From: a virus
Lineage: Duplodnaviria > Caudoviricetes
IMG/VR virus record: IMGVR_UViG_3300033463_000049
Span: 1 to 64,000 of that record
DNA: 64,000 nt
Reading direction: 5' to 3' (one strand)
The notes beneath the pieces are model-generated. The model was not told the origin of the DNA, searched no databases, and saw only the letters and a program-made list of their open reading frames with translations. The position numbers and the translations under genes were made by a program. This document shows, piece by piece, positions 751 through 24,396 of this stretch; the first letter of the stretch is position 1, and each line of letters opens with the position of its first letter.

Positions 751-851
751 ACATAAATAACGAGCAAAATTCTCATTATAGTTGTACAAAAGTACACATT
801 CTGTAGTGTTACCATTACACCACCGTCCGGTTTAACATTAGTTATTAGTTT

Positions 852-886
852 AAAAGTAGCCGCCATCTTCACAGACAGCGACTACC
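852..886 (-). terminator. intrinsic terminator-like hairpin with GUGA tetraloop
   Basis: GGTAGTCGCTGTCT-GTGA-AGATGGCGGCTAC-TTTT. Confidence 0.55.
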
Positions 887-931
887 GGCTTCATTAAAGT
901 AATAAAAACCTAAACTAAGACCAATTGGTTG

Positions 932-1005
932 TGGACCAGCCAGGGCTTGAACCTGGGACCTCCAGATTATGAGTCTGTTGCTCTAACCAACTGAGCTACA
1001 AGTCC
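932..1005 (-). tRNA. tRNA(CAU), elongator type (Ile2 or Met)
   Basis: GGACTTG...ACAGA-CT-CAT-AA-TCTGG...CCAGG-TTCAAGC-CCTGG-CTGGTCC-A. Confidence 0.9.
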
Positions 1006-1246
1006 TTATGCTAGGGGCTACTATACTTCACCCCTAGCTACCATTCACCTAAGAGATTAGGACTCCCATCCAATCTCAACATACGTCTCACGACGTTTTA
1101 TCTTTTACCAGCATAACTGCGGTAGATTCTGCGTAGGCGGTATTTCTGTTTTATACCGATGTTGCCAGATAACGTTTCTGTTCATAATGTGATCAACAGT
1201 ACGAATTTCTGGATATCCTACTCGAATTTTGTAAAAACTAATCATT

Positions 1247-1840
1247 TTATTTTTGTACTTTGAACACTCTCATGCGCAGAGTTGGGAACATTTCGCGAAT
1301 CTTCTCTTCTGACACTTGTTTGTGTAAAGTTACATAGCATACGTTCCTTTTGGTTATTATAGAATCCTTGTCTATACCAGCCTTAAGAAGCATCTCTTTT
1401 GCTGCATTTTCAGCATGCGCTACAATGTTTATTGTAACTTCTTCTGATGAAACAACACGATGTCTCACGTCTCTCTTGCAGACAGTTCTCTTCCTTGTCT
1501 TATCTGTAACGTAGAAGAAATTAGAAGGAACGAGAATCTGAAGGATCCTCTTAACAGTGATAGCCGGCGTCTCTTTCTTGGACAACGGCACAATCCACGT
1601 CTTTTCACCATTCTGGTGATAGAACGTTTTACAACCAAAGTGTTCTTTGTTGAACAGCAATCGTTTTTCGTGGATTTTTGAAGGATCTACTCGGTGAGCA
1701 TTAATTCTCCTTCCTGTAGCCTCATCTACTTCTTTCTGTTCTCGTTTGAGAGACGACAGAAGTGGTCGCTTACTCGGCGCCTTTTTTACTTTCCACGAAG
1801 CATTTGTGCGACTTTTAGCATGCAATAAACATTTTTTCAT
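1247..1840 (-). CDS. hypothetical basic protein
   Basis: 197-aa ORF preceded by the shared CATTATCAAA-ATG start motif. Confidence 0.75.
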   Translation of the reverse strand: MKKCLLHAKSRTNASWKVKKAPSKRPLLSSLKREQKEVDEATGRRINAHRVDPSKIHEKRLLFNKEHFGCKTFYHQNGEKTWIVPLSKKETPAITVKRILQILVPSNFFYVTDKTRKRTVCKRDVRHRVVSSEEVTINIVAHAENAAKEMLLKAGIDKDSIITKRNVCYVTLHKQVSEEKIREMFPTLRMRVFKVQK

Positions 1841-1911
1841 TTTGATAATGCTTTTTGTTTAACTGTTATAAAATATCCAGTTTTTAAAGAACTTGGTATA
1901 AACTTTTATAA

Positions 1912-2931
1912 TTATTTCCAAAATTTTATCGTTTGGTTTTTAACGTAATCTTTGAACTTTGGATATTTCTTGTCGATTGACTCTCGTTCAGTCGTCCAAA
2001 CGTAATCAGCGTCTACACATATTTTAGCTGATGGTTGTCCTTTGAACCAAGGAATACTACAATCACCAACTTTAATAGGTATATCGTTTATATTCTTCGT
2101 TTGTATTCTGAACTGAACGGGTGGCGTTTCGTTGTAACTATAAGTATTAACCATAGTCTTAGTACTTACTCCAAACGCATTGTGTACTTCATTGCCATCT
2201 ATATATAATGGTAAAGTACCTCCTGCGGCGAGCAATGTAACTACATCACCATCTATTCCAAATACCACATCGTTGTAGTCGAAATCAGTGCTTTGTACAC
2301 CTAAATCTTCTGCAATTATGATTTTAGAATATGCCGGTGAGATTTTCACAATCCAATCATTGTACAGTCCGTCAGGACTTTCTCGCTGATTAGGATTCAT
2401 ACCGTCAGCAGAAAAATCAAAACCTACGTAATATTGACCATCGATTTCTTTTATATAATAGTCGTTGTGCATCTTATTGTCAAGACTATTATGATAACCG
2501 AAATTAAGCGTTGTAGAGTTGACCATCTTCATAACACTACCAGTATTGGCATTGAAGTTTGCTATGTGGTCATCGTAGCCGCAATATAGCCAGTCCATAT
2601 TAGAGTGTTTGCCAGATATGTGTTGAACATAAAAGTTCATCCAGTCTACTTCGATACTGTTTGTAGGAAAGTAGTGTGTGTCAAACCAACGCGTCACTTT
2701 CTCTATCTCTGTACGAGTAGGGGCAGCTGGCGTGTAGTCCCACATATTGGCATTTACATCAGCGCTACGTGTAATAGCGTCAAATCCCCACATATGGTCT
2801 TTTTGTGGTTCACCATAGGTACTTACGAACTCCTTTTTGAAGTTCTCGTTTTTGACCTGTTGCTGGTCAATGTTTTCTTTACAGCAACACATTAGTACTG
2901 TAAGAAGTAGGAATAGAATTGATTTCTTCAT
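1912..2931 (-). CDS. Bacteroidota-type lipoprotein, DUF4842/LruC-like C-terminus
   Basis: Lipoprotein-type signal MKKSILFLLLTVLMCCCK; motifs AEDLG..TDFDYNDVVF, LLAAGGTLP, W..ER..I...YP.F. Confidence 0.7.
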   Translation of the reverse strand: MKKSILFLLLTVLMCCCKENIDQQQVKNENFKKEFVSTYGEPQKDHMWGFDAITRSADVNANMWDYTPAAPTRTEIEKVTRWFDTHYFPTNSIEVDWMNFYVQHISGKHSNMDWLYCGYDDHIANFNANTGSVMKMVNSTTLNFGYHNSLDNKMHNDYYIKEIDGQYYVGFDFSADGMNPNQRESPDGLYNDWIVKISPAYSKIIIAEDLGVQSTDFDYNDVVFGIDGDVVTLLAAGGTLPLYIDGNEVHNAFGVSTKTMVNTYSYNETPPVQFRIQTKNINDIPIKVGDCSIPWFKGQPSAKICVDADYVWTTERESIDKKYPKFKDYVKNQTIKFWK

Positions 2932-2955
2932 TGTTTTTTTGTTTTATAAATATTT

Positions 2956-3423
2956 TTATAATTTTAATGGCGTTCTGTAACACTCATCTTGTTCCCGGAT
3001 CAAGAATCTTGTTATTCCTACAAAAGTAAAGAAACTCTGATTTAACAGATACAATTCATGCTTTCTCCAAAATCTCGAAACTTGTGGTACAATATGTCCA
3101 GGAATTATTCGTTCCCCGTACTTCATTGTTGCGCACAATGGGTGTTGATTTAAGAATTCCTCTGTTAGTCTAAATGTGACATAACCAAAATACTCCCACG
3201 ACCAATAGCCAACATAGACATCTTTTGGCATCAGACAGTCTTCCGGAGCTAATTCCGTTGGTCTATCTTCACGTGCAAAGTTTAAGTATCCGAGCAGAGG
3301 TTTGCCGGTTTTACTTTCTACGGTACATATTATTGTAACAGGTCTTACAATACTTATATACCCAGGAACAAGAATTAATTCTATAGCTCCTTGAACATTG
3401 ATTGTGTCTCCTCGTTTCCACAT
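2956..3423 (-). CDS. hypothetical protein
   Basis: 155-aa ORF colinear with its neighbours. Confidence 0.7.
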   Translation of the reverse strand: MWKRGDTINVQGAIELILVPGYISIVRPVTIICTVESKTGKPLLGYLNFAREDRPTELAPEDCLMPKDVYVGYWSWEYFGYVTFRLTEEFLNQHPLCATMKYGERIIPGHIVPQVSRFWRKHELYLLNQSFFTFVGITRFLIREQDECYRTPLKL

Positions 3424-3456
3424 AATAATTATAATTTAAAAGTTTACAGATTCTAG

Positions 3457-3509
3457 GAGTGAGTGCGGGAGTCGAACCCGCAGAATTAACTCGTCCAAAT
3501 TACTCACTC
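3457..3509 (-). ncRNA. tRNA-like minihelix (8-bp acceptor plus T arm, no D or anticodon arm)
   Basis: GAGTGAGT/ACTCACTC stem; GCGGG-TTCGACT-CCCGC T arm; 20-nt connector. Confidence 0.7.
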
Positions 3510-3800
3510 TTTGTTCGCGTTTAGGTAGTACGCACCGACTTCACGCAGCCTCCTTGAGGCCCGTGTAGTCTGCAATGTTAATATTGCCAGTTAAATTTAT
3601 ATCAAAGCGCTTAATGTGTTTACTTCCACTGCCGTCAAATGCATTCAGGCCCGTGTTAAAATGGGGCGCGTGACAGTCGCCCCGCCAGTGTTCGATTGAG
3701 TGTATATTTTCGGAACTGGTAGTGGACCTGGAGGGTATGCCTCCCTCGTCCGAACAGTTTACCTCACACACGCTAAGATTTCGCACTAAAGATCGTGGAA
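3510..3800 (-). ncRNA. ssrA: circularly permuted (two-piece) tmRNA; outer boundaries approximate
   Basis: Acceptor piece ends GGAC-GAGGG-AGGCATA-CCCTC-CAGGTCC-A (3723) and lies upstream of the coding piece starting GGGCCTG (3652). G3:U70 pair and A73. Tag frame 3588-3541 encodes GNINIADYTGLKEAA-stop after TAACT. Confidence 0.85.
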
Positions 3801-4117
3801 ATAACTATTCCATAATGGAGATTCCCCATCTCCGTCTACTTCATTGCATGAACAATAATCTTTGACTTCTGGGTTATCTTCTAAGGACTTTAACATTTCC
3901 TCGGCCTTTTCATCAGATACTTGGTAAAAAACTAATATATGTTTCATATCAAATAAATATTTGTGAGCAAAGGTGGACGCGACCCGCCAATGCTCTGTGA
4001 CGCTATTTTAAAGCCTCCTGGCGCATTTTACAGTCGTTGTGGTCAGCTGTTCCACTTTAACTATAAAACGCGTCAGAGAGGCTGTAAATGGCTTATGAGT
4101 GTGTACGGTGATATGAC

Positions 4118-4388
4118 TGATACAAAGATACTCGCATGTCGTACAGACGTACTTTGATAGTCTGTATGAGCTAAGCTGGTACAATGACACACATACAGTT
4201 TTGCTATTGAGCATAAAAGCATATTTTACGTCTTAGCTAGACGTTTGAATCCACCATTGATACAAAGATACTTAGGCATGTGTCGATTCACATAACACCT
4301 TTGCAATACTCTTCGTGGTCTTATTTGTCTAATTACAATGCCGTTTCCTAAATGCAAATTGGTGTATTACACGTGATACAAAGATACT
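4118..4388. repeat. three exact 15-bp direct repeats TGATACAAAGATACT
   Basis: Copies at 4118-4132, 4258-4272 and 4374-4388; the minus strand contains TATCTTTG (Bacteroidota -7 box TAnnTTTG). Confidence 0.85.
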
Positions 4389-4415
4389 TGTGTATAGATT
4401 CGTTCCTACCGTGGG

Positions 4416-5015
4416 TTACCAACGCCACGAATAAGAGAAGTAGCCAGGATACTCCGACTCGAGGTTGCTCTTGTCGATATCATACTGCTTCTCCAGAGCG
4501 GTCTTTTCCTTACGCTCTGCATCTGCCATACGCTCGCTCAGATCGTCGTACTCAGGACAGGTGATGCTGCCAGGAACCCAGACCTCTTCGCCGCCCTTCT
4601 TGAGCTCGAATGTCTTCTTCTCCTTAACAGGGTTGCCGTCCTTATAGTCGGTGATGACTTCCATCTCCAGCTTGCCGTCCTTGCCGCCCATTTTGGTGAT
4701 GTGCTCTTCGTTGAGCAAGAAGCCGGACATCTGATACTGGAGCTTTTCAGCCTCTTTCAGGTACTTCAGCGTGATGTTGTTCTCATGACGACGCTTCTGC
4801 AGCTGCAAAAGCTTAAGTCTGCGCTGGAACTCTGAGCGCAGCGAACGCGTCATGATGTTTTCCTTCAGACGGTCGTCCTTGGTTTTCTTGATGTTCTCCA
4901 TCACTGCCTTAGTGATTTCTACACTTGCAGTACCTTCTCTACGTACTACTGTGCTGATGTTGTCGATGTCGACAACGCCGTTTTGCTGCTGAGCAGCGTC
5001 TTTCTTGTTTGCCAT
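4416..5015 (-). CDS. hypothetical protein, probably highly expressed
   Basis: 199 aa, strong codon bias, CATTATCAAA-ATG start motif. Confidence 0.85.
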   Translation of the reverse strand: MANKKDAAQQQNGVVDIDNISTVVRREGTASVEITKAVMENIKKTKDDRLKENIMTRSLRSEFQRRLKLLQLQKRRHENNITLKYLKEAEKLQYQMSGFLLNEEHITKMGGKDGKLEMEVITDYKDGNPVKEKKTFELKKGGEEVWVPGSITCPEYDDLSERMADAERKEKTALEKQYDIDKSNLESEYPGYFSYSWRW

Positions 5016-5055
5016 TTTGATAATGATTTTGTTATTGTAAAAAATTAACTAAAAC

Positions 5056-5190
5056 TTACTGGTCTTCCCAGTGTGATCGCTTTCCGTTAGCTCTGCAATA
5101 CGGATCCATCTTTCGATGTGCACCTCTTTCGTGCTTTTTTACTTCTATATCGCGTCGCTTAGAGGGCCGATCTCGCCATGTCTTTCCCAT
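5056..5190 (-). CDS. small basic protein (44 aa, MGKTWRDRPSKRR...), not in ORF track
   Basis: ATG 5190 to TAA 5056 fills the gap between co-oriented genes. Confidence 0.55.
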   Translation of the reverse strand: MGKTWRDRPSKRRDIEVKKHERGAHRKMDPYCRANGKRSHWEDQ

Positions 5191-5194
5191 ATAC

Positions 5195-5689
5195 TTACCA
5201 CCTTGAAATAAATCCGTATAAAGTTTTAAACACAGCGATTTTCTGTCCAGTGAAGTTATACTTATCCATCAGGCTTGCTGAGATGTTTAAGTCTTCTTTA
5301 GACAGAATTTCTAGCGAATTGTCAAAACGCTTCTTTTCTTCCTCTTGCCCTAGTCTGAGGTAAGCGTTCAGAACTGCTCCTGTAAACTCCTTCTTGTTAA
5401 AGGGTTTTGCAAGGGCATGTGCTAGAATTGTACCGAAATAGATGATGGCCTCATCTTCGGGAGTATTTTTAACTCGGGGTTTTTTTGTCGCCTTTGTCAT
5501 TGTTTTTACTACCCCAGAGACATGATCGCTAGCAAGTAGAACTTGAGCGATTTCCTGCTGATCGAACACAACAGCGTGAACTGTTTCTGCTCCGCTTTGT
5601 TTACCAACAGCTGTTTGGAGATTTATGACGAAGGTGTCATCGGGGGCAGCTTCCCCCTCATAAATTAAAAGGATTGCGCGTGTCTGCAT
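5195..5689 (-). CDS. hypothetical protein
   Basis: 164-aa ORF in the operon. Confidence 0.8.
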   Translation of the reverse strand: MQTRAILLIYEGEAAPDDTFVINLQTAVGKQSGAETVHAVVFDQQEIAQVLLASDHVSGVVKTMTKATKKPRVKNTPEDEAIIYFGTILAHALAKPFNKKEFTGAVLNAYLRLGQEEEKKRFDNSLEILSKEDLNISASLMDKYNFTGQKIAVFKTLYGFISRW

Positions 5690-5700
5690 CTTTGCCAGTG

Positions 5701-6213
5701 TTAATCGATGATTGTAAATTTCTTGCCGTCAATAATTGTGTCAGTCCTAATTTTAGGAGACGACTCGTTCAGAAGCTTGTCAAGCTGTACGTCTGATGAA
5801 TCTTTCGGCCTTTCGGATAGTTTTGTACTGATAGAGGAGTCAATGAATTTATAGACAGTATTATAATTCTGCCTATATTCATATACAATATCCCTCTTGG
5901 TTGCACTACCCTGCCGTTTAATAACGACTTGAGCAATGTTAACTAAAGCTTCCTGTGGGATAGCCCGGAACGTTGAATCAATAGAGTTTTCATCAGCTAT
6001 TCGTTGTCGAAACTGATAAACATCATCAACCGACATAAACGTCGGATTGAGCACACTGGCAACAGCCTCTTTGAGCTGTGCGTTTTCTGTTGTGTCTTCT
6101 AATAGGTAATCAGCATACTTCTGATCCTCGTAGTAGTTATAGCCCAGCGAAGACACAATACTGAGCGCTACTACCCCGACTATTGTCAGGAGAACATAAA
6201 CAAATTTCTTCAT
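5701..6213 (-). CDS. membrane-anchored hypothetical protein
   Basis: N-terminal TM or signal helix; CATTATCAAA-ATG motif. Confidence 0.8.
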   Translation of the reverse strand: MKKFVYVLLTIVGVVALSIVSSLGYNYYEDQKYADYLLEDTTENAQLKEAVASVLNPTFMSVDDVYQFRQRIADENSIDSTFRAIPQEALVNIAQVVIKRQGSATKRDIVYEYRQNYNTVYKFIDSSISTKLSERPKDSSDVQLDKLLNESSPKIRTDTIIDGKKFTIID

Positions 6214-6244
6214 TTTGATAATGAGAATTTAATTAAACAATTGG

Positions 6245-6487
6245 TCATTTCTGACCGTCGGATTTTCTAATTCCTTCCCACTCACTGATAAATATTACTA
6301 AGAATACTATAGTGAGTATTGCAGATGCAACGAATTGACAGGTATTGTGAAGATTTGCATCTTTCTTCATGTCGTCATACGACATGCCGGTTACTGCCAA
6401 TAGTCCCAAAAGAGCAACGAAATACATTGTAGAGATGATAATTCTCTCCGCAAATGTTTTAATTTTCACACCATTTCCCATAATCAT
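6245..6487 (-). CDS. small two-TM membrane protein
   Basis: Two hydrophobic helices. Confidence 0.65.
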   Translation of the reverse strand: MIMGNGVKIKTFAERIIISTMYFVALLGLLAVTGMSYDDMKKDANLHNTCQFVASAILTIVFLVIFISEWEGIRKSDGQK

Positions 6488-6731
6488 TTTCGTTAAGGAA
6501 ATACGATTCGTTGTCCTCTAAGCAAGAGTCACGACGTTCATGCAAATCATAATCAGAGAATGATACTACACATATGTCAGCATCATCTGCCTCTTTCCAT
6601 GTTTTGTATTGAACATTGTTTTCTTCACACCACTTTTTCATGTGGCGTACATTCATGTGGTGACCGCGAACTGCCATTTCACGTTCTCCATAGGTGCGTC
6701 TACACCTTCTCAGTTTCTTTTTCGCTTCCAT
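6459..6731 (-). CDS. hypothetical protein
   Basis: 90-aa ORF. Confidence 0.6.
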   Translation of the reverse strand: MEAKKKLRRCRRTYGEREMAVRGHHMNVRHMKKWCEENNVQYKTWKEADDADICVVSFSDYDLHERRDSCLEDNESYFLNENDYGKWCEN

Positions 6732-6842
6732 TGTTGTTTACGATTTGATTGAACTGACAAAAAACGCATACGGCTGCGTTGCATTCTGTACAATCGTTGT
6801 TGTTCATAATAATTGTTTAATTGTTTCTGCAATATTGCATTG

Positions 6843-6915
6843 TGTGTCGTGTTGGACTCAAACCAACGACCTCCGGCTTATCGAGCCGGTGCTCTATCAA
6901 CTGAGCTAACGACAC
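6843..6915 (-). tRNA. tRNA-Ile(GAU) with C33
   Basis: GTGTCGT/ACGACAC acceptor; CCGGC-TC-GAT-AA-GCCGG; T loop TTTGAGT. Confidence 0.8.
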
Positions 6916-7050
6916 TGTCGCCTATAGACGTCTGGCGACAACTGTGGATATTTCTGTATCTCCTAGCAGCGGGTCTTCTATTTATAAGCTGCTTCTTGCG
7001 CGACCCCGATTTCGTAACATCCATACCACAGCATCCGTTTTAATGGTTTG

Positions 7051-7122
7051 TAGTCGATAGCAGAATCGAACTGCTCTTTAGAGAATGAAAATCTCTCGTC
7101 CTAACCGATAGACGAATCGACC
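7051..7122 (-). tRNA. tRNA-Glu(UUC)
   Basis: GGTCGAT/ATCGACT; AGAGA-TT-TTC-AT-TCTCT; AGCAG-TTCGATT-CTGCT. Confidence 0.9.
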
Positions 7123-7127
7123 GAATT

Positions 7128-7222
7128 AAAAATCAGTACCACTCTCACGAGCAATACTGATTCACATCATACCATGAGCAAAACTTTGAAATCTAACATT
7201 ACTCTCACGAGCTATGATAGAA
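7128..7222 (-). terminator. two tandem GUGA-tetraloop hairpins, the downstream one with a U tract
   Basis: ACTCTCACGAGC core repeated at 7141 and 7201; AATCAGTATTGCTC-GTGA-GAGTGGTACTGATT-TTT. Confidence 0.55.
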
Positions 7223-7344
7223 CAAAAGTAAGCCAATCATTTTTACCAATAACTAAAGGTTTAATTGTGCCAGGATTTTCATAAATCCGAATGAGACAAT
7301 TCAAAAAGATTAACAAGGTATATGCGTTTAAAAAATAACGTTAG

Positions 7345-7416
7345 TTAGGGAGGGCGGATTCAAACCACCGTCTACAGAAACCATATCTGTCGCTCTAAAC
7401 GCTGAGCTACTCCCCA
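7345..7416 (-). tRNA. tRNA-Pro(UGG)-like with atypical anticodon loop
   Basis: TGGGGAG/CTCCCTA; ACAGA-TA-TGG-TT-TCTGT (A33, U37); D loop lacks GG. Confidence 0.65.
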
Positions 7417-7896
7417 GGTGTACGTGTATTTACCCACGCACAGGTGTCAGCTTCTTTTTAAGTCTCCTCTGACCACGACTTTGTACCGACTAGCCCCAAC
7501 ATCTAGAATGGTCACGGTACTGTGGGGTCTAATAGCATTACCCCTTTGTACACACTTACGATCTATATTATCGTAAGCCTTGACGGATTGTCGATCCGGC
7601 ATGATTGTAGGTCGAGTGACGCGTCTTTCAGGTTTCCTTGTTTAATTCTGACTAACCTGATAAAAATCCAGACGCCTACAATCTGCATGCGCACCCTCTC
7701 ATCATTCGTACTGAGATCCCTAGGAATTTCCATGGAGTCTGATTCACTCAATACTTGCGGGCTTGAGGTTTCCGCTTTAGCTGATTTCTATGCATACTGC
7801 GGCAGGGGAGCTAATAACTTAAAACAAACTTATGGCTTCAAACTCATTCATTTGCTCCCCCACCGCGCGTGAGAATATATGAAAGTAATTAAAGTA

Positions 7897-8112
7897 TTAC
7901 ATTTTTGCTAGTCGTGCTAGTTTCTTATATTCTCGTTTTGCCTCTTCACGAGGCATTGTGGTCATAATCATACGTCCATCTACATCTTTATAGATTGCCC
8001 ACTTAAACGCATGATGTGCCAGCAAAGATACTTTATTACCAAAAGCATCTTCAAATTGTGCAATGATCCTATGCTGGCAACGATTAGGATCATATTTCTT
8101 TTTTCGTGTCAT
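7897..8112 (-). CDS. hypothetical protein
   Basis: 71 aa; ATGA overlap with the upstream gene. Confidence 0.7.
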   Translation of the reverse strand: MTRKKKYDPNRCQHRIIAQFEDAFGNKVSLLAHHAFKWAIYKDVDGRMIMTTMPREEAKREYKKLARLAKM

Positions 8113-8555
8113 CTTATTATCTGTGTTACAACGTGATCAACATAGATTATTATCTCTGTTTCTCTACCATTTCTCTGGTGAGTTATTCCCCACGGTTTAA
8201 CAATGACTTTGTTATCACTGTCTGAGAAGAAGGTTATTAACTCTGGCTTGTCTTTGTAGACTTTTAACCAGTTTGTTGTTGCAGGATGTCGTACAACTAC
8301 CTGTGAATGCATGGCAATTGTTTTTACGACATTCGGAGACACATTCAATGCTGCTCTTGTTGGAATGTATACGTTATTTTTGAACAAACAACGTAATTCT
8401 CCAGTTTTTAAGAGCATATTGCTTATATTTACCACTTCGGCTGCAACCAATTCTCGTTCTACACTACGAACGATGAGCCAGGGTCCGATGGGTAAACCTA
8501 ATGCTGGTAATTTTCGCTTAACCAGCATTCCTTTTCGCACTCTTTTTTCTGTCAT
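8109..8555 (-). CDS. hypothetical protein
   Basis: 148-aa ORF. Confidence 0.7.
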   Translation of the reverse strand: MTEKRVRKGMLVKRKLPALGLPIGPWLIVRSVERELVAAEVVNISNMLLKTGELRCLFKNNVYIPTRAALNVSPNVVKTIAMHSQVVVRHPATTNWLKVYKDKPELITFFSDSDNKVIVKPWGITHQRNGRETEIIIYVDHVVTQIIR

Positions 8556-8600
8556 TCTTGATAAATTAACAGATTAATTACTAAAGATGAACTTAACCCA

Positions 8601-8837
8601 TCATCTTTTTGGGTTTATTCGCTGGAGATAGTGGGTTGTTGGCAGTTTTCGACGATAACATACGTTGGAACATACGTGCTGTCTAGGAATCGGACCAAAC
8701 GTGTGTGAAATATCACATACAATACACGGAGGTATGAAACTATATTTGTCGCGACGCCGCTTTTTTACCCGAAATATTATCCCACGGATTGTCACTAACT
8801 GTCCTGGTTTCCACATACTTTTTCGTAATATCCCCAC
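8601..8837 (-). CDS. small Cys-motif protein (KPGQLVTI paralog)
   Basis: KPGQLVTI..I(F/Y)R followed by CxxC motifs; true start probably at MWKPG. Confidence 0.65.
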   Translation of the reverse strand: MGILRKSMWKPGQLVTIRGIIFRVKKRRRDKYSFIPPCIVCDISHTFGPIPRQHVCSNVCYRRKLPTTHYLQRINPKR

Positions 8838-8992
8838 AGTCCTAATTTTTCAACACAACCTATGCATTGTAGCATTGGAAGTGCACACAGTCTACATGAT
8901 GATAATAGAGTACTTTTTCGTCTTCTGATACGATAAACAGTGCGATTTATCGTAACCAGTTGTCCTGGTTTGAATCTACTCATCTCGTACAA
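8795..8992 (-). CDS. small Cys-motif protein (KPGQLVTI paralog)
   Basis: FKPGQLVTINRTVYR...CRLC...CIGC; ends TAG-TGA. Confidence 0.65.
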   Translation of the reverse strand: MYEMSRFKPGQLVTINRTVYRIRRRKSTLLSSCRLCALPMLQCIGCVEKLGLWGYYEKVCGNQDS

Positions 8993-9210
8993 ATCAAATT
9001 ACCCTCAAGATGTGTTCCTAACTTCTCACATATATCCGTCAGAGATTCAGAGATTACTTTGGCAGCGTTCTCTGTTACACCTTTACAAACCAACATCGTA
9101 GAATTACCGGCTTTAAACCATAATCTACGTCTATCGTTTCCCAGCTTATCCACTCTCTTCTTTTTGGGAAGAGGTGGATTTAGCTGGTTTTGTTTTTTAT
9201 ATGCCTCCAT
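8980..9210 (-). CDS. hypothetical protein
   Basis: 76-aa ORF overlapping both neighbours. Confidence 0.6.
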   Translation of the reverse strand: MEAYKKQNQLNPPLPKKKRVDKLGNDRRRLWFKAGNSTMLVCKGVTENAAKVISESLTDICEKLGTHLEGNLICTR

Positions 9211-9940
9211 TCAGATTAATATTTAATTCACGAATGTTTATGACGATCTGAGGAATGCCCTCTTCAGACTCTTCAGGATTATCATCTATTGGAGTTTCAC
9301 CGGCAGGATCGATCTTAACAGTACGTTTCTTTGTTTCACCAAAATCTATTAGATGTTTGTCATCATTCTCGTGCTGGTTCAGCCATTCCTGAACAAAATT
9401 GTGAGAGTGATCAAGATGTTCTTCTGCTGATTTTTTCAGTGCATGAATAATGTAAGCATCTTGAAGTTTTTCGTCCTCTTTTGCCTTTGCTACAAGCATT
9501 TTCCTAATTTTTTCAGCAGCTGATGACTCTTCTTCAGATTCTTCAGGATCATCTGTTTCGGACTCTTGATCAGTTGGACCAAAGTTGATGAGATGTACAT
9601 CTTCTTCAGGACAATCTCTGTGCTGTTTTTTCCACTGCTGTACAAAGTTGTGAGAATATTTTTCTTGTGATTTTTGAAGTGCGTGAACAAACGGTTCACC
9701 GTATTTGTTGTAAGCATCTCGAAGTTCTTCGTTTGCTTCTAGAGTTTCTGACAGTGAGTTGTGCACATCAATGAATGTGTTGAGCAAGAGCTTCATAAAC
9801 TCTGCAACTTCATCACCAGTTATCACTTCGCCGTTATATACAGCGAGTACAGCTGGTACTGCCATCCAAGGTGTAGTACCTCCGGATGTAACGGCAATTT
9901 TTAGTTCTTTTGCCATTTTTAGAGCTTTTTGTATATCCAT
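9197..9940 (-). CDS. acidic hypothetical protein with an internal duplication
   Basis: HAL.KS...SHNFVQ.W..QH...HLI.FG...PEESEE occurs twice. Confidence 0.8.
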   Translation of the reverse strand: MDIQKALKMAKELKIAVTSGGTTPWMAVPAVLAVYNGEVITGDEVAEFMKLLLNTFIDVHNSLSETLEANEELRDAYNKYGEPFVHALQKSQEKYSHNFVQQWKKQHRDCPEEDVHLINFGPTDQESETDDPEESEEESSAAEKIRKMLVAKAKEDEKLQDAYIIHALKKSAEEHLDHSHNFVQEWLNQHENDDKHLIDFGETKKRTVKIDPAGETPIDDNPEESEEGIPQIVINIRELNINLNGGI

Positions 9941-10075
9941 ACGTTTTTGTTTAGTATTGATTACTATTCCAACACTTAACTCAGTCGGATTTGAGTGATG
10001 CTAATATTAAGGCTCCGAGAATAAATCCGAGTCCAAATGACAGGAGCATCTTTGCTGTGAATAGATCGATGTACA

Positions 10076-10315
10076 TTATTTCCAGATATTAAGTTTTACG
10101 CGTTTGGTTTTCTTTGCTCTGTAGCTGGCTATATACATTTTCATAAAAAAATAGCTTTCTTTTCTTAGCTCTTCTATGATTGAATCTTTTTTAAGCCAGC
10201 CATGTTTATGTATGCGTGAGCAAGAGTAGTATGTTACACCAGCCACTTTTAACGCGTAAACAGCATATCTCTCACGGAATTTTCTTCGTAACTCTTTTAA
10301 CAGCTTTACTTTCAT
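10076..10315 (-). CDS. hypothetical basic protein
   Basis: 79 aa, MKVKLLKELRRKF-type small phage protein. Confidence 0.65.
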   Translation of the reverse strand: MKVKLLKELRRKFRERYAVYALKVAGVTYYSCSRIHKHGWLKKDSIIEELRKESYFFMKMYIASYRAKKTKRVKLNIWK

Positions 10316-10344
10316 TTTTCAGATACTTTAGTTTTCATCGATAG

Positions 10345-10692
10345 TCATAAGCCAATTGTATCTACTTTGCAAATAGTATCCCTTTTCACCTGTTGTACAG
10401 GTAAGTCGGGAAACGCCAAACGCATACGACGATACGTGCTATCTTTGATAATAACTGGAGGTATAGGACCTATCAGTTCTTCAAGAATGCACCATTCGTC
10501 TGTTTCAGATAGTACATCGAGCACAAAATCTGCATCATGCTCTTCCACCACGTACAAGATGTCGATAATTGCTTTCTCCAATCTTGCACATTTCTCACAA
10601 TATGCATCGGACTTAGTCTGTGCAGAAACGAAATTACACTCAACTAAGCCGATGCATACCAACGCGATTATGAACAACGTAAGCTTTTTCAT
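10345..10692 (-). CDS. secreted or membrane hypothetical protein
   Basis: N-terminal signal-like segment. Confidence 0.7.
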   Translation of the reverse strand: MKKLTLFIIALVCIGLVECNFVSAQTKSDAYCEKCARLEKAIIDILYVVEEHDADFVLDVLSETDEWCILEELIGPIPPVIIKDSTYRRMRLAFPDLPVQQVKRDTICKVDTIGL

Positions 10693-10890
10693 CTTTCAAC
10701 CGGGAAATTTCTCTTTGTTGTAACATTTCCACGGCGACTTGTCTCGCACACATATTGTTGTGCACGAAAGTCGTATCTCACACTTATTTTTGCATCCATG
10801 ATTTGATACGATCTATAAGCCATTGTGTTATTGCTACGACGACAACGAAAGCTATCGCTGCCTCAAAGAGGATTATTGCCAACTGTGCAT

Positions 10891-11232
10891 TCATTTCTTC
10901 AATGCATTTAGTTGTTCTGTGATTTTCGGCAGGTATCGACGATACATTTTACCTGTCTTTTTCGATCGGAGCCAGCAATACGCTTTCCCCTTACTTGAGA
11001 GAAACACAGGGTACTTGAAACCCTGAAGATCTTGATAGTAGAAATTTGTTTTCACACTATCACCAGTTGTAGTTTGTTGGATAAATGTATTACCCTTCAA
11101 AACTACATTTTGTCCTCTCAAGCCATGCGCAATGGCTAAGAATCCAAGGATGAGGACAATGATACCTAGGATTCTCGATGATCGTTTTATCATATGTTTA
11201 AATGGTGAATTCAAACAAAGTTGTGTAAACAT
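10891..11232 (-). CDS. membrane-anchored hypothetical protein
   Basis: TM helix, then YQDLQGFKYPVFLSSKGKAY...SKKTGKMYRRYLP. Confidence 0.75.
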   Translation of the reverse strand: MFTQLCLNSPFKHMIKRSSRILGIIVLILGFLAIAHGLRGQNVVLKGNTFIQQTTTGDSVKTNFYYQDLQGFKYPVFLSSKGKAYCWLRSKKTGKMYRRYLPKITEQLNALKK

Positions 11233-11234
11233 AT

Positions 11235-11271
11235 AAAAAGGGAGCGGACTTATGCCTAAGCAGCCGCTCCC
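11235..11271 (-). terminator. intrinsic terminator
   Basis: GGGAGCGG/CCGCTCCC stem followed by TTTTT on the minus strand. Confidence 0.6.
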
Positions 11272-11280
11272 CTACATGTT

Positions 11281-12093
11281 AACACATCGTTGCGCTTTCT
11301 ATCCTCCCAGTGGGTTGATGTACTCGATGTGGGATTCAGCCAATGCCTTCCATTGACCTCTCCTATAAATCCACACCTAGTAACTTACTAGTTTAGGTTG
11401 GTGTGCCACAATGGTTACGCAACATACTCATTGTAGTATAATTATTCCTTTGATGAAATAACTATAGATTGTAACCTCTAAGGGATTTGCGTGTGAGTCG
11501 AGTAACAGAGACACTCACTCCCCGTTGTATTGATAGGATACAACTGACCGATTCTACCTAGGTAGATTACCACTCGGCTAATGGGTTCAACTATTCCAGT
11601 GGACACATCACTGTTCAAGTCTAGCGTGTGTTTGTCGGGGACACGCATCCTCCCTTAGATAGTAGTCTATCGGCCAGGCAGCAGGCATCAGATAGTACAC
11701 ACAAATGGTCTTGTGTTGACCTGACTATCTTTAGCCTGAACTTCGGGACGTATCCCGAACATCTGCCAATTTGTTTGTAAACTCTTTCCCCTGCAAGCGG
11801 TCAAACCTACAGGGTACTGTTACCATGTAAAATTTGAATTGATTGCGAAATCCCAACTCACTCGAATAATCGATATAGGCGCCAGTTGCCGTGACACGTG
11901 GGATCTACTGGACTTATGAGGAAGTTTACATATTGTGCTCGCTGTCTAATGCCACCTGATATTATCAGGAATGGGAACAACTGCGGTTTAGCACTTACTC
12001 TCTTGCCTCACGGCAGCACGAGCACTTTGATATATGATATTCACGTTGCTCTGCAATATGCAGGTTGTACGTGGAGAGCGCAAATTTTGTGTT
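11281..12093. ncRNA. candidate large (about 810 nt) structured non-coding RNA
   Basis: No credible ORF; end-closing helix 11290-11300/12073-12083; many nested helices. Confidence 0.55.
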
Positions 12094-12203
12094 TATTTTA
12101 ACTTTATACAATAGGCTATATATTAAGAGAAAATAAGCCTATGAATAAGAGAAAATACAACAATTCCGAAAGTGAGGTGGCTCTCCTGCGAGAGCCTGCC
12201 CAC

Positions 12204-12860
12204 TTATAGACCTAAATCGTCAGCGGTTTTTGTGTCCGCTTTCGTTTCGGTCGGTACGTTCAAATCTCCGTCATCAATACGACGCAACAAGTTGTTGCGT
12301 AACATATTTGTCGCGCTTTCAGTATCGGTAAAAACTCCGTAAAAGATTTTACTTTGTTCCGAAATTCGTACAACCGCGCCGTCAGCGTTTTCGTACTCCA
12401 AATACTCTGTACCCTCGTACTTTGTACCCTTCAGGAGTGCGGACACGCTTTCAGTCAAAACGGAAAAAACTGAAGTGTTTCCCAAACCCTCGAAGTACTC
12501 ACGAAGTTTTCCTTCAAGTTTCGTTTGTTGCTCGTCAGTCAGACCGCCTTTGGGAGTCTTGAACGTTTTCCCGTCTCCCAAATCCAAATCCAAATCGTCA
12601 GCCGTAAAAACACCTGAATAACGAATTTGAGTGCGGTTTTTTAGTATCGTCTGTTTCATTTTCTCGCGTACTTTTTCGTCAGTAACACGCGAAAGAATTT
12701 CGTTTTCTTTGTCTGAGAGTGTATCTCCGTCAGAGAACGAAATAACGATACGATAACCCGTTTGGGGTTCGTAGCCCGCGCGTTCCTCACGATTACGCGC
12801 TTTTAGCGTGTCGGGAATTTCGACCAACACGATTTTTGCCAAATCAAATTTTGTCTGCAT
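12204..12860 (-). CDS. acidic hypothetical protein with distinct nucleotide composition
   Basis: 218-aa ORF, CpG-rich, followed by a hairpin at 12171-12204. Confidence 0.85.
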   Translation of the reverse strand: MQTKFDLAKIVLVEIPDTLKARNREERAGYEPQTGYRIVISFSDGDTLSDKENEILSRVTDEKVREKMKQTILKNRTQIRYSGVFTADDLDLDLGDGKTFKTPKGGLTDEQQTKLEGKLREYFEGLGNTSVFSVLTESVSALLKGTKYEGTEYLEYENADGAVVRISEQSKIFYGVFTDTESATNMLRNNLLRRIDDGDLNVPTETKADTKTADDLGL

Positions 12861-13010
12861 GATGTAAAACGTATTAAGTATATGTAATGTATAGGGGGAA
12901 CCTTTCCCCCATACGCATGTACTGGGGTGTGAAGTCTGCTATTTCTCCTTTCCACACTCACACAAAAAAATAAAAAATTTTTAAAAAATTTTCACCGTGT
13001 AGTAGTGTAC

Positions 13011-13046
13011 AAAAAAATCCGAAGAACATCGCTGTTCCCCGGATTC
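13011..13046 (-). terminator. intrinsic terminator ending the 15525-13052 operon
   Basis: AATCCGGGGAACA-GCGA-TGTTCTTCGGATT-TTTTT. Confidence 0.7.
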
Positions 13047-13051
13047 TATGT

Positions 13052-13240
13052 TTAATCTTCTTCCCACCATTGCAGGAATGCACACTTTGCATTAGGATTA
13101 TTCTCTGCTTGTTGGAATTTAACGGACCTAATGTATTTAACTATTCCGTCACTCCACGTGCCAACTTGTATATCACCGTATTTCTTCTGAATGACTTTAA
13201 GTTGTTCTATTATTTCACTTATTTTTAAAGGTTCTTCCAT
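13052..13240 (-). CDS. hypothetical protein
   Basis: 62 aa, LKISEIIEQL..IQKKYGD. Confidence 0.7.
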   Translation of the reverse strand: MEEPLKISEIIEQLKVIQKKYGDIQVGTWSDGIVKYIRSVKFQQAENNPNAKCAFLQWWEED

Positions 13241-13243
13241 GTA

Positions 13244-13462
13244 TTATGCATTATTACTCTCTAGTTCTATTAGCATTTCAAGATAATGTTTGGCCTTTTT
13301 TAGGTCTTCTATACCGTTCTTATCTTTATATCTACATATATACTTTATTATATTACCTACTATAAAGCTTAAGTTATTTTTGTGTATAAATTCCACAGGT
13401 TGGATGGCAAAACCTTTGTAGTGTGAGCCACCCACCTGCTGTTCTAGAGCATTATTCGTCAT
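13244..13462 (-). CDS. DUF3310 (SaV-like) protein
   Basis: QVGGSHYK..IQPVEFI...GNIIKYICRYKDKNGIEDLKKAKHYL. Confidence 0.85.
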   Translation of the reverse strand: MTNNALEQQVGGSHYKGFAIQPVEFIHKNNLSFIVGNIIKYICRYKDKNGIEDLKKAKHYLEMLIELESNNA

Positions 13463-15703: not shown

Positions 15704-16120
15704 ATGGCAAAGACATTAAGAGTAATTGATCCGTTTTTCATTATGGAATTGGGAGATACGTTTGAGTTCTCCGATGAAACAAATATGTACGTTTCAAAAC
15801 ATAAGGAAGAGTTTTATAAGGCAGATAGCGAACGTGTAGAAGATATAAAGTCTTCATATAGTTCAGAATTTCAGATTTCTGTCGAATATGCTCAGACCTT
15901 GGTTAAGGATGGTTACTTGGAAGAGGTTGAAGACGACAATAAGAAGTCATTTGTAAATATCTTTGATGAGATAGACAATCTTCTGGAAAAGTACAAGGAT
16001 GGTTTGGCCACCCTCAATAAGGATACAATGAACCTTCCTGCTTGCGTAAAAGTTGAGCGCGAAGTCGTTTTGACCAACTTGGTAACACTACTTGAACACT
16101 TAAAAAGCTTAAAGAAGTAA
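15704..16120 (+). CDS. hypothetical protein
   Basis: Probable start MAKTLRV downstream of the promoter motif. Confidence 0.8.
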   Translation: MAKTLRVIDPFFIMELGDTFEFSDETNMYVSKHKEEFYKADSERVEDIKSSYSSEFQISVEYAQTLVKDGYLEEVEDDNKKSFVNIFDEIDNLLEKYKDGLATLNKDTMNLPACVKVEREVVLTNLVTLLEHLKSLKK

Positions 16121-16518
16121 TGGAAGAGGATAAGATTATAGATCAGTCGGAGCTGGCAAAGAGCGTTGGTAATAGTATTAAATACACTTTTTACGACCAC
16201 TTTCTTGTAAAGCCCCTGGACCCGATCAAAGTAAAGAAAGAATTTACAGTACCTGTCGATACTACTGTTCATGAAGATAAGAATGGTGTTAAAGCAGAAG
16301 ACTTTAAAGAGACGTCGACAGAGGTTAAAGAAGTTGATTCCGATTATCGCAAAGGAATTGTAATCAAATGTCCTGCTTATTATGACGATCCTAGTGTAAA
16401 GCAGGGTGCGCAGGTCGGTGATGTTGTGATCTTCAGAGATGCTGCGGGATTGAGATTTGACCTTGTAAAAGACAGTAGACTTCTTAGACAATACGATATA
16501 CTTGGTTTTGAGAAGTGA
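16120..16518 (+). CDS. groES: GroES-like co-chaperonin
   Basis: DHFLVKP...KGIVI...QVGDVVIF...LLRQYDILG, with an extended mobile loop. Confidence 0.7.
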   Translation: MEEDKIIDQSELAKSVGNSIKYTFYDHFLVKPLDPIKVKKEFTVPVDTTVHEDKNGVKAEDFKETSTEVKEVDSDYRKGIVIKCPAYYDDPSVKQGAQVGDVVIFRDAAGLRFDLVKDSRLLRQYDILGFEK

Positions 16519-16730
16519 TTGACATAGAACAAGTGATAAAAGAAGTTTCAGTTAAGACTGGAGAAGACAGAGACGAAGTTGCTAGAGTATGCAAACACGT
16601 ATTCGAACAATTAGTTAAAATAATGAAAGATGACGAAGATACTAGAGATATTCTACTTAATCACTTTCTAAAATTTAAACTGAAACGCAGATATAAAGAA
16701 AACAAATCTAAACCCTATACAGCAAAATGA
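16515..16730 (+). CDS. HU/IHF-like DNA-binding protein
   Basis: IKEVSVKTGEDRDEVARVCKHVFEQLVKIMK...ILLNHFLKFKL. Confidence 0.6.
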   Translation: MIDIEQVIKEVSVKTGEDRDEVARVCKHVFEQLVKIMKDDEDTRDILLNHFLKFKLKRRYKENKSKPYTAK

Positions 16731-17086
16731 AGACATTTTATCTTACTTACGGTTCTAATAATATTATAATCGATCCTGAGACAAATAGAGCAGATCGATT
16801 GGAAACCAGTAGAACCGGAATAAACAACATCTACTTGGTAAAAGAACCAATGCACGTTGTGTACGGATACAAGGACGAACAGAAGGAATTTGATGTAGAT
16901 GTTGATGATATTATTGTTACATTCTACAGTGAAGACTTTACGACACACGCAATAGTTGTAAAGAATGAAGAGTGGGCAAACAATATTAAGACATACGACA
17001 AAGCTCGACAAGAAGAAAAAGAACGTTGGGCAGAAGCAGAAAAAGGTACTATTCCAACATGTAATGCGTGTGAATCAATTGGTTAA
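16727..17086 (+). CDS. hypothetical protein
   Basis: 119 aa; ATGA overlap. Confidence 0.75.
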   Translation: MKTFYLTYGSNNIIIDPETNRADRLETSRTGINNIYLVKEPMHVVYGYKDEQKEFDVDVDDIIVTFYSEDFTTHAIVVKNEEWANNIKTYDKARQEEKERWAEAEKGTIPTCNACESIG

Positions 17087-17106
17087 GGTTAAAATATAAA
17101 CATACT

Positions 17107-17373
17107 ATGAAAAAGACAGTTAAGAACACAAAGCCCAGTTATACAGTAGATTTGACCAAAGTAAAGACTCTTGAAGATATCGATGTTGCTTTTGGTCTGG
17201 CCAAGCAAAAGGCTGGTCTCGCCATTAGTGACGAAGAGCTTAGCGCAATCGTTTTTGATGCTATTAAGGCATTTGGTCCGCGAATTACAATCGTAGATTG
17301 TACTTGTCCGAAAGCTGCAAAGAAGCCAAACATCTTTAAGCGCTTCTGGAACTGGATGCTCGGCAGAAAGTAA
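17107..17373 (+). CDS. hypothetical protein
   Basis: 88 aa with amphipathic C-terminus KKPNIFKRFWNW. Confidence 0.75.
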   Translation: MKKTVKNTKPSYTVDLTKVKTLEDIDVAFGLAKQKAGLAISDEELSAIVFDAIKAFGPRITIVDCTCPKAAKKPNIFKRFWNWMLGRK

Positions 17374-17515: not shown

Positions 17516-17569
17516 GACCTATATGAAGGCACCCTTAAGAAAGGCTGGGATCGTTCCCCAGTATAGGTC
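17516..17569 (+). ncRNA. tRNA-like minihelix (8-bp acceptor plus T-like arm)
   Basis: GACCTATA/TATAGGTC; CTGGG-ATCGTTC-CCCAG; 21-nt connector. Confidence 0.6.
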
Positions 17570-17570
17570 C

Positions 17571-17648
17571 TGCCCCGTAGTGTAAATACCTTAAACACAG
17601 AGGATTCTAGCCCCTCATTTGGTCGCAGGTGACGGCCCGGGGTGACCA
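17571..17648 (+). tRNA. amber suppressor tRNA(CUA), probably Gln, with non-canonical D and T loops
   Basis: TGCCCCG-TA-GTGT-AAATACCTTAA-ACAC-A-GAGGA-TT-CTA-GC-CCCTC-ATTT-GGTCG-CAGGTGA-CGGCC-CGGGGTG-A-CCA; anticodon 17607-17609. Confidence 0.85.
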
Positions 17649-17670
17649 ATACTGAGAAAACAGTAAACAC

Positions 17671-17774
17671 ATCGGCGTAGTTCAAGAAAGGTAGGATAGA
17701 TTGCATGATACTCCCCTTGAGGACGATTGATAAGTATACAGTCAAAGCAGGTGCAACACCTGTCGCCGATACCA
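17671..17774 (+). tRNA. tRNA-like RNA with a 35-nt expanded anticodon loop
   Basis: ATCGGCG/CGCCGAT-A-CCA; D arm GTTC/GGAT; GATTG/CAGTC stem; T arm GCAGG-TGCAACA-CCTGT. Confidence 0.7.
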
Positions 17775-17777
17775 AAT

Positions 17778-17849
17778 CGCGGAGTGGAGAAGAGGTAACT
17801 CGTCAGGCTCATAATCTGAAGATCGCTGGTTCGATTCCAGCCTCCGCAA
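17778..17849 (+). tRNA. initiator tRNA-fMet(CAU)
   Basis: C1:A72 mismatch; TCAGG-CT-CAT-AA-TCTGA; GCTGG-TTCGATT-CCAGC. Confidence 0.9.
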
Positions 17850-17874
17850 CTCATCATGATAATATAAATTTATA

Positions 17875-18438
17875 ATGGAAATTAAATTTAAGAAACTTGA
17901 TCCGCGAGCAGTAGCTCCGGTACGCGCCCATTCTACGGACGCAGGTGTTGATTTAACTGCCACTCGTATCACGACCGAAATAAACGAGTGCGGACAGTTA
18001 ATTTTGGTATACCACACGGATATTGCAGTAGAGATTCCTGAAGGCTATTGGGGTGTACTTGCTCCGCGCAGCTCTATATTCAAGAAGTCTCTGTCTCCCA
18101 CAAACTCGATTGGCGTCATTGACGCTGGTTATAGAGGAGAGATTATGGCCAAGTTCCGTTCCACTACAGATGTGGTTCCTGCGGTATACAAAGAAGGTGA
18201 ACGATTTGCACAGCTTCTGATTGTTCCTGTTCCAGAAGTAACCTTTACTGAAGCATTTGAACTTTCCGATTCAGATAGAGGCGAAGGTGGTTATGGATCA
18301 TCGGATGCAGTGACGGACACATCAAGCGCGACGTCCAACGATGCTGGTTCTTCCGAAGATAAAGGTGAACCTACAAACCAGCAGAACGTTGCAGACGAGA
18401 GCGGCGGGGAAGCAAACATCCCTGAGCAGGCAGAATAA
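17875..18438 (+). CDS. dut: trimeric dUTPase with acidic C-terminal extension
   Basis: AGVDL, PRSS, GVIDAGYRGEI, FAQL and RGEGGYGSS motifs. Confidence 0.95.
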   Translation: MEIKFKKLDPRAVAPVRAHSTDAGVDLTATRITTEINECGQLILVYHTDIAVEIPEGYWGVLAPRSSIFKKSLSPTNSIGVIDAGYRGEIMAKFRSTTDVVPAVYKEGERFAQLLIVPVPEVTFTEAFELSDSDRGEGGYGSSDAVTDTSSATSNDAGSSEDKGEPTNQQNVADESGGEANIPEQAE

Positions 18439-24314: not shown

Positions 24315-24396
24315 GACCTTATAGCTCAATTGGTAGAGCACCCGCCGGTATACAGTCCGATACGGCATGTTCTCGGTTCGAGTCCGAGTTGGGTCA
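24315..24396 (+). tRNA. tRNA-like gene with aberrant anticodon arm
   Basis: Canonical D arm GCTC-AATTGGTA-GAGC and T arm CTCGG-TTCGAGT-CCGAG; middle arm GCCG-G-TAT-ACAGTCCG-ATA-CGGC. Confidence 0.65.

Follow-up and report, generated by a model that had tools for sequence, protein, structure and literature searches.

The genome of virus record IMGVR_UViG_3300033463_000049 (Duplodnaviria; Caudoviricetes) comprises 102,216 bp, has overlapping ends and is rated complete by CheckV; the stretch of DNA analysed here, hereafter the window, covers its first 64 kb. The TerL protein is 81% identical to that of crAssphage cr272_1 (Crassvirales, Suoliviridae, Buhlduvirus), and the phage, which is present in DNA runs from cattle gut, is a Suoliviridae-like, crAss-like phage of that habitat. 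Reading TAG as a sense codon raises the coverage by frames of at least 200 aa from 0.38 to 0.77. A plus-strand block at 18561-81410, the first part of which (18561-64000) falls within the window, contains approximately 200 in-frame TAG codons and includes the terminase, portal and major capsid genes; the two minus-strand blocks (217-13462 and 81473-102113) have nearly none.

The plus-strand block is opened by small TAG-free genes (15704-17373), followed by a cluster of RNA genes, a TAG-free dUTPase gene (17875-18438, plus strand; phrog_135, E = 5e-48) that served as our synteny anchor, and finally the TAG-rich genes. The cluster consists, in this order, of a candidate amber-suppressor tRNA (17571-17648), a tRNA-like element (17671-17774) and a canonical tRNA-Met(CAU) (17778-17850, plus strand) that is called by ARAGORN and scores 61.7 bits in Rfam. 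A first-pass annotation, made from the sequence and its open reading frames, had located the candidate behind the TAG-free genes and ahead of the TAG-laden ones, which is indeed where it lies, and the order suppressor, tRNA-Met, dUTPase is common to the window and three related loci (L016, L210 and L213). In a second sample, taken in another study, a contig of 381 nt is identical to the window over 17530-17910, and RNA contigs of two metatranscriptomes at the locus cover only the tRNA-Met and the dUTPase gene of relatives. At the top of its acceptor stem the tRNA-Met has a C1 x A72 mismatch, as is characteristic of initiator tRNAs in bacteria; the three G-C pairs that initiators typically have are absent from its anticodon stem.

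Elsewhere the phage encodes a tRNA-Gln(UUG) at 144-215 on the minus strand, detected by ARAGORN. Searches with ARAGORN and Rfam identified no other CUA tRNA in the complete 102-kb genome, and none was found in the complete 99-kb genome of a relative (G001) that bears the same odd tRNA. The phage genome encodes no GlnRS/GluRS-type synthetase, no GatB and no class-I release factor, and searches of G001 found neither a release factor nor a synthetase.

Architecture and detectability of the candidate tRNA

The candidate spans 78 nt on the plus strand (17571-17648), including an encoded CCA, and its cloverleaf can be read directly from the sequence. The 5' strand of the 7-bp acceptor stem (17571-17577) pairs with 17638-17644, beginning with the two wobbles U1.G72 and G2.U71, and the 3' strand runs on through the discriminator A into the encoded CCA (17638-17648). 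A linker of 2 nt leads to a D stem of 4 bp with a D loop of 11 nt (17584-17594), in which CC occupies the site of G18G19. The anticodon stem has five positions, the innermost of which is an invariant A31.C39 mismatch that closes a 7-nt anticodon loop (17605-17611) reading TTCTAGC, that is with U33, the CUA anticodon at 17607-17609 and the purine G37. The variable loop measures 4 nt, and the T stem of 5 bp carries a 7-nt T loop, CAGGTGA (17626-17632), in place of one with T54-Psi55-C56. The D-loop segment TACCT (17587-17591) is complementary to the T-loop segment AGGTG (17627-17631). The first-pass annotation had described the cloverleaf with its CUA anticodon and CCA end, the CC for GG substitution, the T loop and the complementarity of the two loops, and each of these elements is present in the sequence. 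We refer to this arrangement as the class A elbow.

Set against the features of bacterial-type elongator tRNAs, the candidate retains U8, A14, A21 and the purine15-pyrimidine48 pair, and lacks G18G19 as well as the T54-Psi55-C56-purine-A58 motif of the canonical elongator. The core is equally well kept amongst its closest homologues: in the class A alignment described below, columns 8, 14, 24 and 15/50 are invariably T, A, A and A/T, and the equivalents of A14, A15 and A21 in the D loop do not vary.

The first-pass annotation had also expected standard finders to overlook such a tRNA, and both ARAGORN and the Rfam tRNA model do so. ARAGORN does not call the candidate, whether run at its defaults, with introns permitted or with the threshold lowered to 80%; a search with all Rfam models returned no match to it at the gathering score (29 bits for the tRNA family RF00005), nor at E<=10 on 521 nt or on 98 nt. 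Single-sequence folding gives a cloverleaf-like minimum free energy structure whose energy is not better than chance (z = -0.55). Because the finders are negative and the folding energy is ordinary, the candidate sequence is not convincing by itself. GenBank phage records queried with the 521-nt intergenic region yielded matches through the tRNA-Met only, and nothing at E<=0.01 when queried with three classes of atypical tRNA; a loose DNA pattern scan of IMG/VR returned chance matches only; and CAGGTG is not enriched as a repeated motif in the 64-kb window.

Homology, covariation and the probable pairing of the D and T loops

With the dUTPase gene as an anchor, 80 related loci were collected from IMG/VR and further loci from ENA, JGI and Logan contigs. 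Approximately 25 relatives have a tRNA(CUA) that ARAGORN detects, immediately upstream of the dUTPase gene and in many cases next to a tRNA-Met; that of cr272_1 is found at NC_055903.1:12606-12681. The label 'Pyl' that ARAGORN attaches to these tRNAs reflects the CTA anticodon only. The candidate aligns with the relatives' canonical tRNA(CUA) in the acceptor stem, the D stem and the anticodon arm, and a covariance model built from the odd tRNAs only (R1) scores the candidate at 99 bits and the canonical suppressors at 28-40 bits. Judged by alignment and gene order, the candidate is a homologue of its relatives' canonical suppressors and lies in synteny with them: it is a CUA tRNA, in a phage with in-frame TAG codons, that corresponds in sequence and in site to recognised suppressors. 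The canonical Crassvirales tRNA(CUA) (those of cr272_1, L001-L005, L018, L022 and L210) and the candidate have in common CUA, U33, similar acceptor and D-stem sequences and the site upstream of dUTPase beside tRNA-Met, and presumably also the glutamine identity and the role in late gene expression. The D loop of the canonical tRNAs contains GG (or GA), their T loop contains TTCGA or TTTGA, and ARAGORN detects them, whereas the candidate has neither motif but complementary loops, G37 and the A31.C39 mismatch, and is missed by both ARAGORN and Rfam. Some canonical members (L007, L013 and cr272_1) carry an A19-U56 variant, which is a known one.

The suppressor family in turn resembles the tRNA-Gln of the phage. 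The match between the 5' end of the candidate and that of the phage tRNA-Gln(UUG) at 144-215, which had been pointed out from the sequence, is confirmed, and this tRNA is the phage's own tRNA closest to the suppressor family: it is identical to the canonical suppressor of L022 at 52/75 positions, against 39-44/75 for the other phage tRNAs. A sensitive model search of 14 further relatives recovered other tRNAs only, and their suppressors, if any, lie elsewhere in their genomes. A tblastn comparison of the three genes after dUTPase with those of relatives gave too few alignments to be of use.

DNA pattern scans for the odd D loop led to the IMG/VR contigs L015, L021 and L082 and to the metagenome contigs L201-L207. 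The class A alignment comprises six distinct sequences over 78 gap-free columns. When the cloverleaf and the loop-loop helix are imposed on it, standard pairs occupy 100% of the 150 cells; 14 of the 25 pairs have undergone compensatory changes on both sides, and none of 500 shuffles reaches the alignment in any measure. Sliding the partners by 1-3 columns reduces pairing to 36-51%. Changes on both sides affect 5/5 pairs of the T stem, 3/4 of the anticodon stem and 5/7 of the acceptor stem, whilst the anticodon loop, the A31.C39 mismatch, U8, A14, A21 and the 15/48 pair are invariant in all six sequences. RNAalifold recovers the same cloverleaf from the homologues unaided. This pattern of substitution indicates that the fold of the candidate is under selection.

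Similar reasoning can be applied to the two loops. Written as D-loop segment followed by T-loop segment, both 5' to 3', design A (UACCU / AGGUG) is found in the window, L021, L015, L082 and L202; design A2 (UGCCU / AGGCA) in L201; design A3 (UGCCU / AGGCG) in L208, which is the same as L209; design C1 (CGCU / AGUG) in L212 and L264; and design C2 (UGCU / AGCG) in L244, L249 and L261. Across these designs the first helix pair is either U.G or U-A, the second takes the forms A-U, G-C, C-G and U.G, and the third those of C-G, G.U and G-C; the unpaired loop bases that flank the helix vary freely. The wobble pairs are consistent with a plus-strand RNA only. The first-pass annotation had named a lack of loop covariation in homologues as one finding that would refute it; the loops do covary (A-U/G-C/C-G and C-G/G.U/G-C at the two positions), counted by hand from the parsed sequences with statistics that ignore phylogeny. 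A MAFFT alignment of all kissing-type designs was dropped as it misaligned loops of unequal length. L201 belongs to a different phage type, which has tape-measure-like and HNH endonuclease genes and lacks dUTPase; a terminator follows its tRNA, whose acceptor stem has a wholly different sequence and is fully paired.

The complementarity could also be read more modestly. The tRNA might be a functional amber suppressor whose elbow is just relaxed and floppy, like that of many mitochondrial tRNAs, with the match between the loops due to chance and shared ancestry. When the loops are shuffled, L201 and L208 each reach P = 0.002, the window 0.03 and the L021 type 0.25; by itself, the complementarity seen in the commonest design is thus no rarity (P 0.03-0.25), as a relaxed elbow would have it. 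The D and T loops are moreover invariant in 5/6 class A sequences and the loop covariation rests on few independent lineages; L033 holds only some 3 contiguous loop pairs, L256 lacks the terminal U-A pair, and the designs that we call class B form just 2-3 pairs. Against this stand the two helix positions that accommodate three or four standard pairs each whilst their flanks vary freely, the strand-specific wobbles, and an independent C-G to G-C swap within class B. We regard a relaxed elbow as unlikely and a loop-loop tertiary helix, on the strength of these substitutions, as likely though not proven. The label 'C19-G56 swap' of the first-pass annotation understates what has changed: the loops would form an antiparallel helix of 4-5 bp rather than one swapped pair.

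In such a tRNA the contacts of G18/G19 with Psi55/C56 would be replaced by an antiparallel 5-bp helix of Watson-Crick and wobble pairs between five D-loop and five T-loop bases, and the core of the L-shape would be retained through U8, A14, A21, a pair of the A15-U48 type and stems of normal length. Stacked on the T stem, the helix might reach about the height of the four stacked layers of a normal elbow and could offer a flat outer pair, in which case the L-shape could persist. The kissing-loop complexes of ColE1 RNA I/II and the HIV-1 DIS, known from textbooks, likewise consist of an antiparallel helix of 4-6 bp between hairpin loops of approximately 7 nt; they join separate RNAs or distant domains, whereas the helix of the candidate would lie within one tRNA at its elbow. 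Mitochondrial tRNAs have similarly lost conserved elbow nucleotides and kept the cloverleaf (textbook; review PMC7954030), but they are served by dedicated machinery and their elbow is mostly weakened, whereas in the candidate the contact seems to be replaced by a stronger Watson-Crick helix that would have to operate with the machinery of a bacterial host.

Proposed decoding and probable amino-acid identity

We consider it probable that the candidate is the working amber suppressor of the phage, descended from the canonical tRNA(CUA) of its clade, and that its elbow has been rebuilt as a loop helix. The proposal that it acts as the effector of the code switch gains support from its standing as the sole CUA tRNA of a recoded genome, from homology and synteny and from the compensatory changes in its stems, its function being deduced from sequence comparison. 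The ancestor would be the canonical tRNA(CUA) upstream of dUTPase in Suoliviridae-like relatives, which is itself tRNA-Gln-like. The tRNA would be transcribed along with the tRNA-Met where the plus-strand late block begins, excised by host enzymes and matured without CCA addition, since its CCA is encoded. Its charging would fall to a synthetase of the host, most likely GlnRS, and by reading the in-frame UAG codons, of which the structural and lysis genes hold approximately 200, it would allow the late genes to be translated. Escape from host factors, orthogonality or drift could each account for the rebuilding of the corner. Phage-specific charging, which had been proposed at the outset, finds no support in a genome that lacks a GlnRS/GluRS-type synthetase, GatB and a release factor; orthogonality and immunity to host nucleases are speculation.

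Several lines point to glutamine as the likely inserted residue. The tRNA-Gln-like body of the candidate has a weak first acceptor pair, G10 and U35, and GlnRS accepts CUA anticodons through U35. When the TerL genes of close relatives are compared codon by codon, 5 columns show an interchange of TAG with CAA/CAG, and two standard-code phages have Q (CAG, CAA) at one of the TAG columns; there is likewise an interchange of TAG with AAA, in 3 columns, so that we can only infer the assignment. The residues opposite TAG in 120 TerL homologues were set aside as circular, those proteins having been predicted with TAG=Q. Proteomics has demonstrated TAG-to-Gln decoding in crAss-like phages (PMC9523058). 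The supE-type tRNA-Gln suppressors of E. coli, familiar from textbooks, share with the candidate a tRNA-Gln-like body, CUA and a weak first acceptor pair; the candidate differs from them in its discriminator (A instead of G), its second acceptor pair (G2.U71 instead of G2-C71) and its non-canonical elbow, and its charging by GlnRS is presumed.

Two known tRNAs with unusual builds were compared with the candidate. tRNA-Pyl, a natural reader of UAG that works with bacterial EF-Tu and ribosomes, provides a precedent for the tolerance of a non-canonical corner. It likewise does without G18G19 and T-Psi-C (textbook; reviews PMC11467909 and PMC11363022); its D loop is very short, its variable loop measures 3 nt, its anticodon stem 6 bp and its linker 1 nt. 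The candidate is not homologous to it, tRNA-Pyl identity being ruled out by the 11-nt D loop, the 4-nt variable loop, the 5-position anticodon stem and the 2-nt linker. The allo-tRNAs that Mukai et al. are said to have described in 2017 reportedly combine acceptor and T stems of 8/4 or 9/3, with 8-9 bp in the acceptor stem and 3-4 bp in the T stem; the stems of 7 bp and 5 bp rule the candidate out as one of these.

A different reading grants the RNA its tRNA shape but assigns it a non-decoding role, for instance as a decoy for a host defence directed at tRNAs, a processing signal or a regulator, with UAG being read by other means. The context of the anticodon is in keeping with this: G37, C38 and the A31.C39 mismatch are unusual and, to judge from E. 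coli, would make a poor context for an efficient amber suppressor, and the neighbouring element at 17671-17774 is likewise tRNA-like and lacks a normal anticodon loop. Yet U33 and CUA are invariant over all elbow designs, the CCA is always encoded, the candidate occupies the site of the canonical suppressor in relatives, and neither the phage genome nor G001 holds another CUA tRNA, a release factor or a synthetase. The Bacteroidota infected by crAss-like phages, moreover, use the standard code. A non-decoding role strikes us as distinctly improbable. That the RNA is a decaying pseudogene of the clade's suppressor, its odd loops being damage, as the failure of ARAGORN and Rfam and the ordinary single-sequence folding energy might suggest, is scarcely credible and is contradicted by the covariation (compensatory change in 14/25 pairs, pairing in 100% of cells), by the conservation of the loops over different phage types, by the identical sequence in an independent sample and by the dependence of the genome on UAG decoding.

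Alternative elbows, encoded CCA and other RNAs of the locus

Close relatives of the phage display two non-canonical elbows in addition to class A. In class B the D loop measures 10 nt and the T loop 7 nt, and no more than 2-3 of their bases are complementary; this class exists in two versions (L030, L006, L248 and L260 against L213 and L211) that differ by the C-G to G-C swap between D and T loop. Designs change over short distances: the dUTPase of L208, 89% identical to that of the window, accompanies a suppressor of design A3, that of L213 (88%) one of design B, that of L212 (86%) one of design C1 and that of L210 (81%) a canonical one. An HNH homing-endonuclease gene (L201:1265-1768) adjoins the atypical suppressor of L201, and a GIY-YIG gene (L209:385-1158) lies between the tRNA and the dUTPase gene of L209. 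Owing to these homing-endonuclease neighbours, and to the varied designs amongst phages with 81-89% identical dUTPases, an exchange of suppressor designs as cassettes is plausible.

An encoded CCA is more frequent amongst the atypical tRNAs, being present in 20/20 distinct atypical tRNAs against 15/23 canonical ones (Fisher P = 0.003, uncorrected for relatedness). CCA-adding enzymes measure from the tRNA elbow, and an encoded CCA would therefore be needed if the rebuilt corner were not recognised by such an enzyme.

A suppressor has been detectable in only 40% of TAG-recoded phage genomes (10.1101/2021.08.26.457843), and most such genomes were likewise found to be without one in PMC7886860; both papers guessed at divergent tRNAs that escape detection. 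The missing suppressors were still unexplained in a 2025 paper (PMC12386605) and in an August 2026 preprint that cites a Suoliviridae case (10.64898/2026.08.21.746148). Our literature search found no description of such tRNAs or of a Watson-Crick helix between D and T loop: phage amber suppressors are already known, and it is the build with a rebuilt elbow for which we found no published account. The locus and its approximately 20 distinct relatives offer a concrete, covariation-supported answer to why many recoded phages seem suppressor-less, and as a covariance model finds rebuilt-elbow tRNAs the question is now testable genome-wide. A natural tRNA that made use of bacterial RNase P, EF-Tu and ribosomes with a Watson-Crick helix in place of the G18/G19-Psi55/C56 corner would be surprising and would reveal what the tRNA elbow is needed for; for genetic-code engineering, these RNAs are candidate amber suppressors with unusual recognition surfaces. 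A still broader proposal, which we put forward tentatively as a possibility that falls short of even chances, is that the near-universal elbow is replaceable in bacterial translation and has been rebuilt in at least three alternative ways (the 5-bp helix, a 4-bp helix with shorter loops and a 2-bp swapped G-C version), that these builds are exchanged amongst close relatives and unrelated phage types, maybe via adjacent homing-endonuclease genes and driven by host factors by which the canonical suppressor is recognised or attacked, and that such hidden tRNAs explain a large share of the approximately 60% of TAG-recoded genomes that appear to have no suppressor.

Other RNAs of the phage and its relatives also depart from the norm. 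A permuted tmRNA at 3541-3774 on the minus strand is missed by ARAGORN and scores 42.9 bits with RF04321, against a gathering score of 47 (E = 2e-7). The first-pass annotation had ascribed to it an elbow swap similar to that of the suppressor; as far as this remark was checked, the tmRNA does lack the canonical GG and UUCGA, with GC for GG in the D-loop analogue and a T loop reading AGGCAUA, and these two segments have a 4-base complement in common (AUGC/GCAU). A relative (G002) has an ARAGORN-detectable permuted tmRNA with canonical GG and UUCGA. The tmRNA may be a second phage RNA with a rebuilt elbow.

The element between the suppressor and the tRNA-Met (17671-17774, plus strand) is a CCA-ending tRNA-like RNA of 104 nt. 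Its acceptor stem has 7 bp, a hairpin resembles a T arm without having a T loop, and the site of the anticodon loop is taken up by a long insert. A copy in L202 (approximately 776-851, minus strand) is 92% identical, and because its differences include compensatory changes (C-G to U-A in the acceptor stem and two hairpin pairs) the element looks like a real structured RNA. In a related phage represented in run X5, a contig joins 17669 to 17874 with 21 other letters between them; this relative would be without the tRNA-like element and the tRNA-Met, as judged from one low-depth contig with 24 letters on its shorter side.

The suppressor is immediately preceded by a T-arm-like hairpin (17516-17569, plus strand) in which ARAGORN detects no tRNA; in L082 (positions 1-37) and L202 a canonical-looking T arm, an acceptor-like strand and CCA abut base 1 of the suppressor. 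The hairpin may be a minihelix or a processing element. Further downstream, in a tRNA at 24315-24396 (plus strand; Rfam 44.4 bits), a stretch of 18 nt replaces the anticodon region of 9 nt; ARAGORN finds this tRNA only if introns are permitted, and then as Cys(ACA) with an intron of 5 nt, and the anticodon arm seems to be extended and to carry a loop of 8 nt. The relative G001 contains a comparable oddity (L228:1501-1571, minus strand), a tRNA of 34.8 bits in Rfam that escapes ARAGORN and whose anticodon region is not a normal 7-nt loop.
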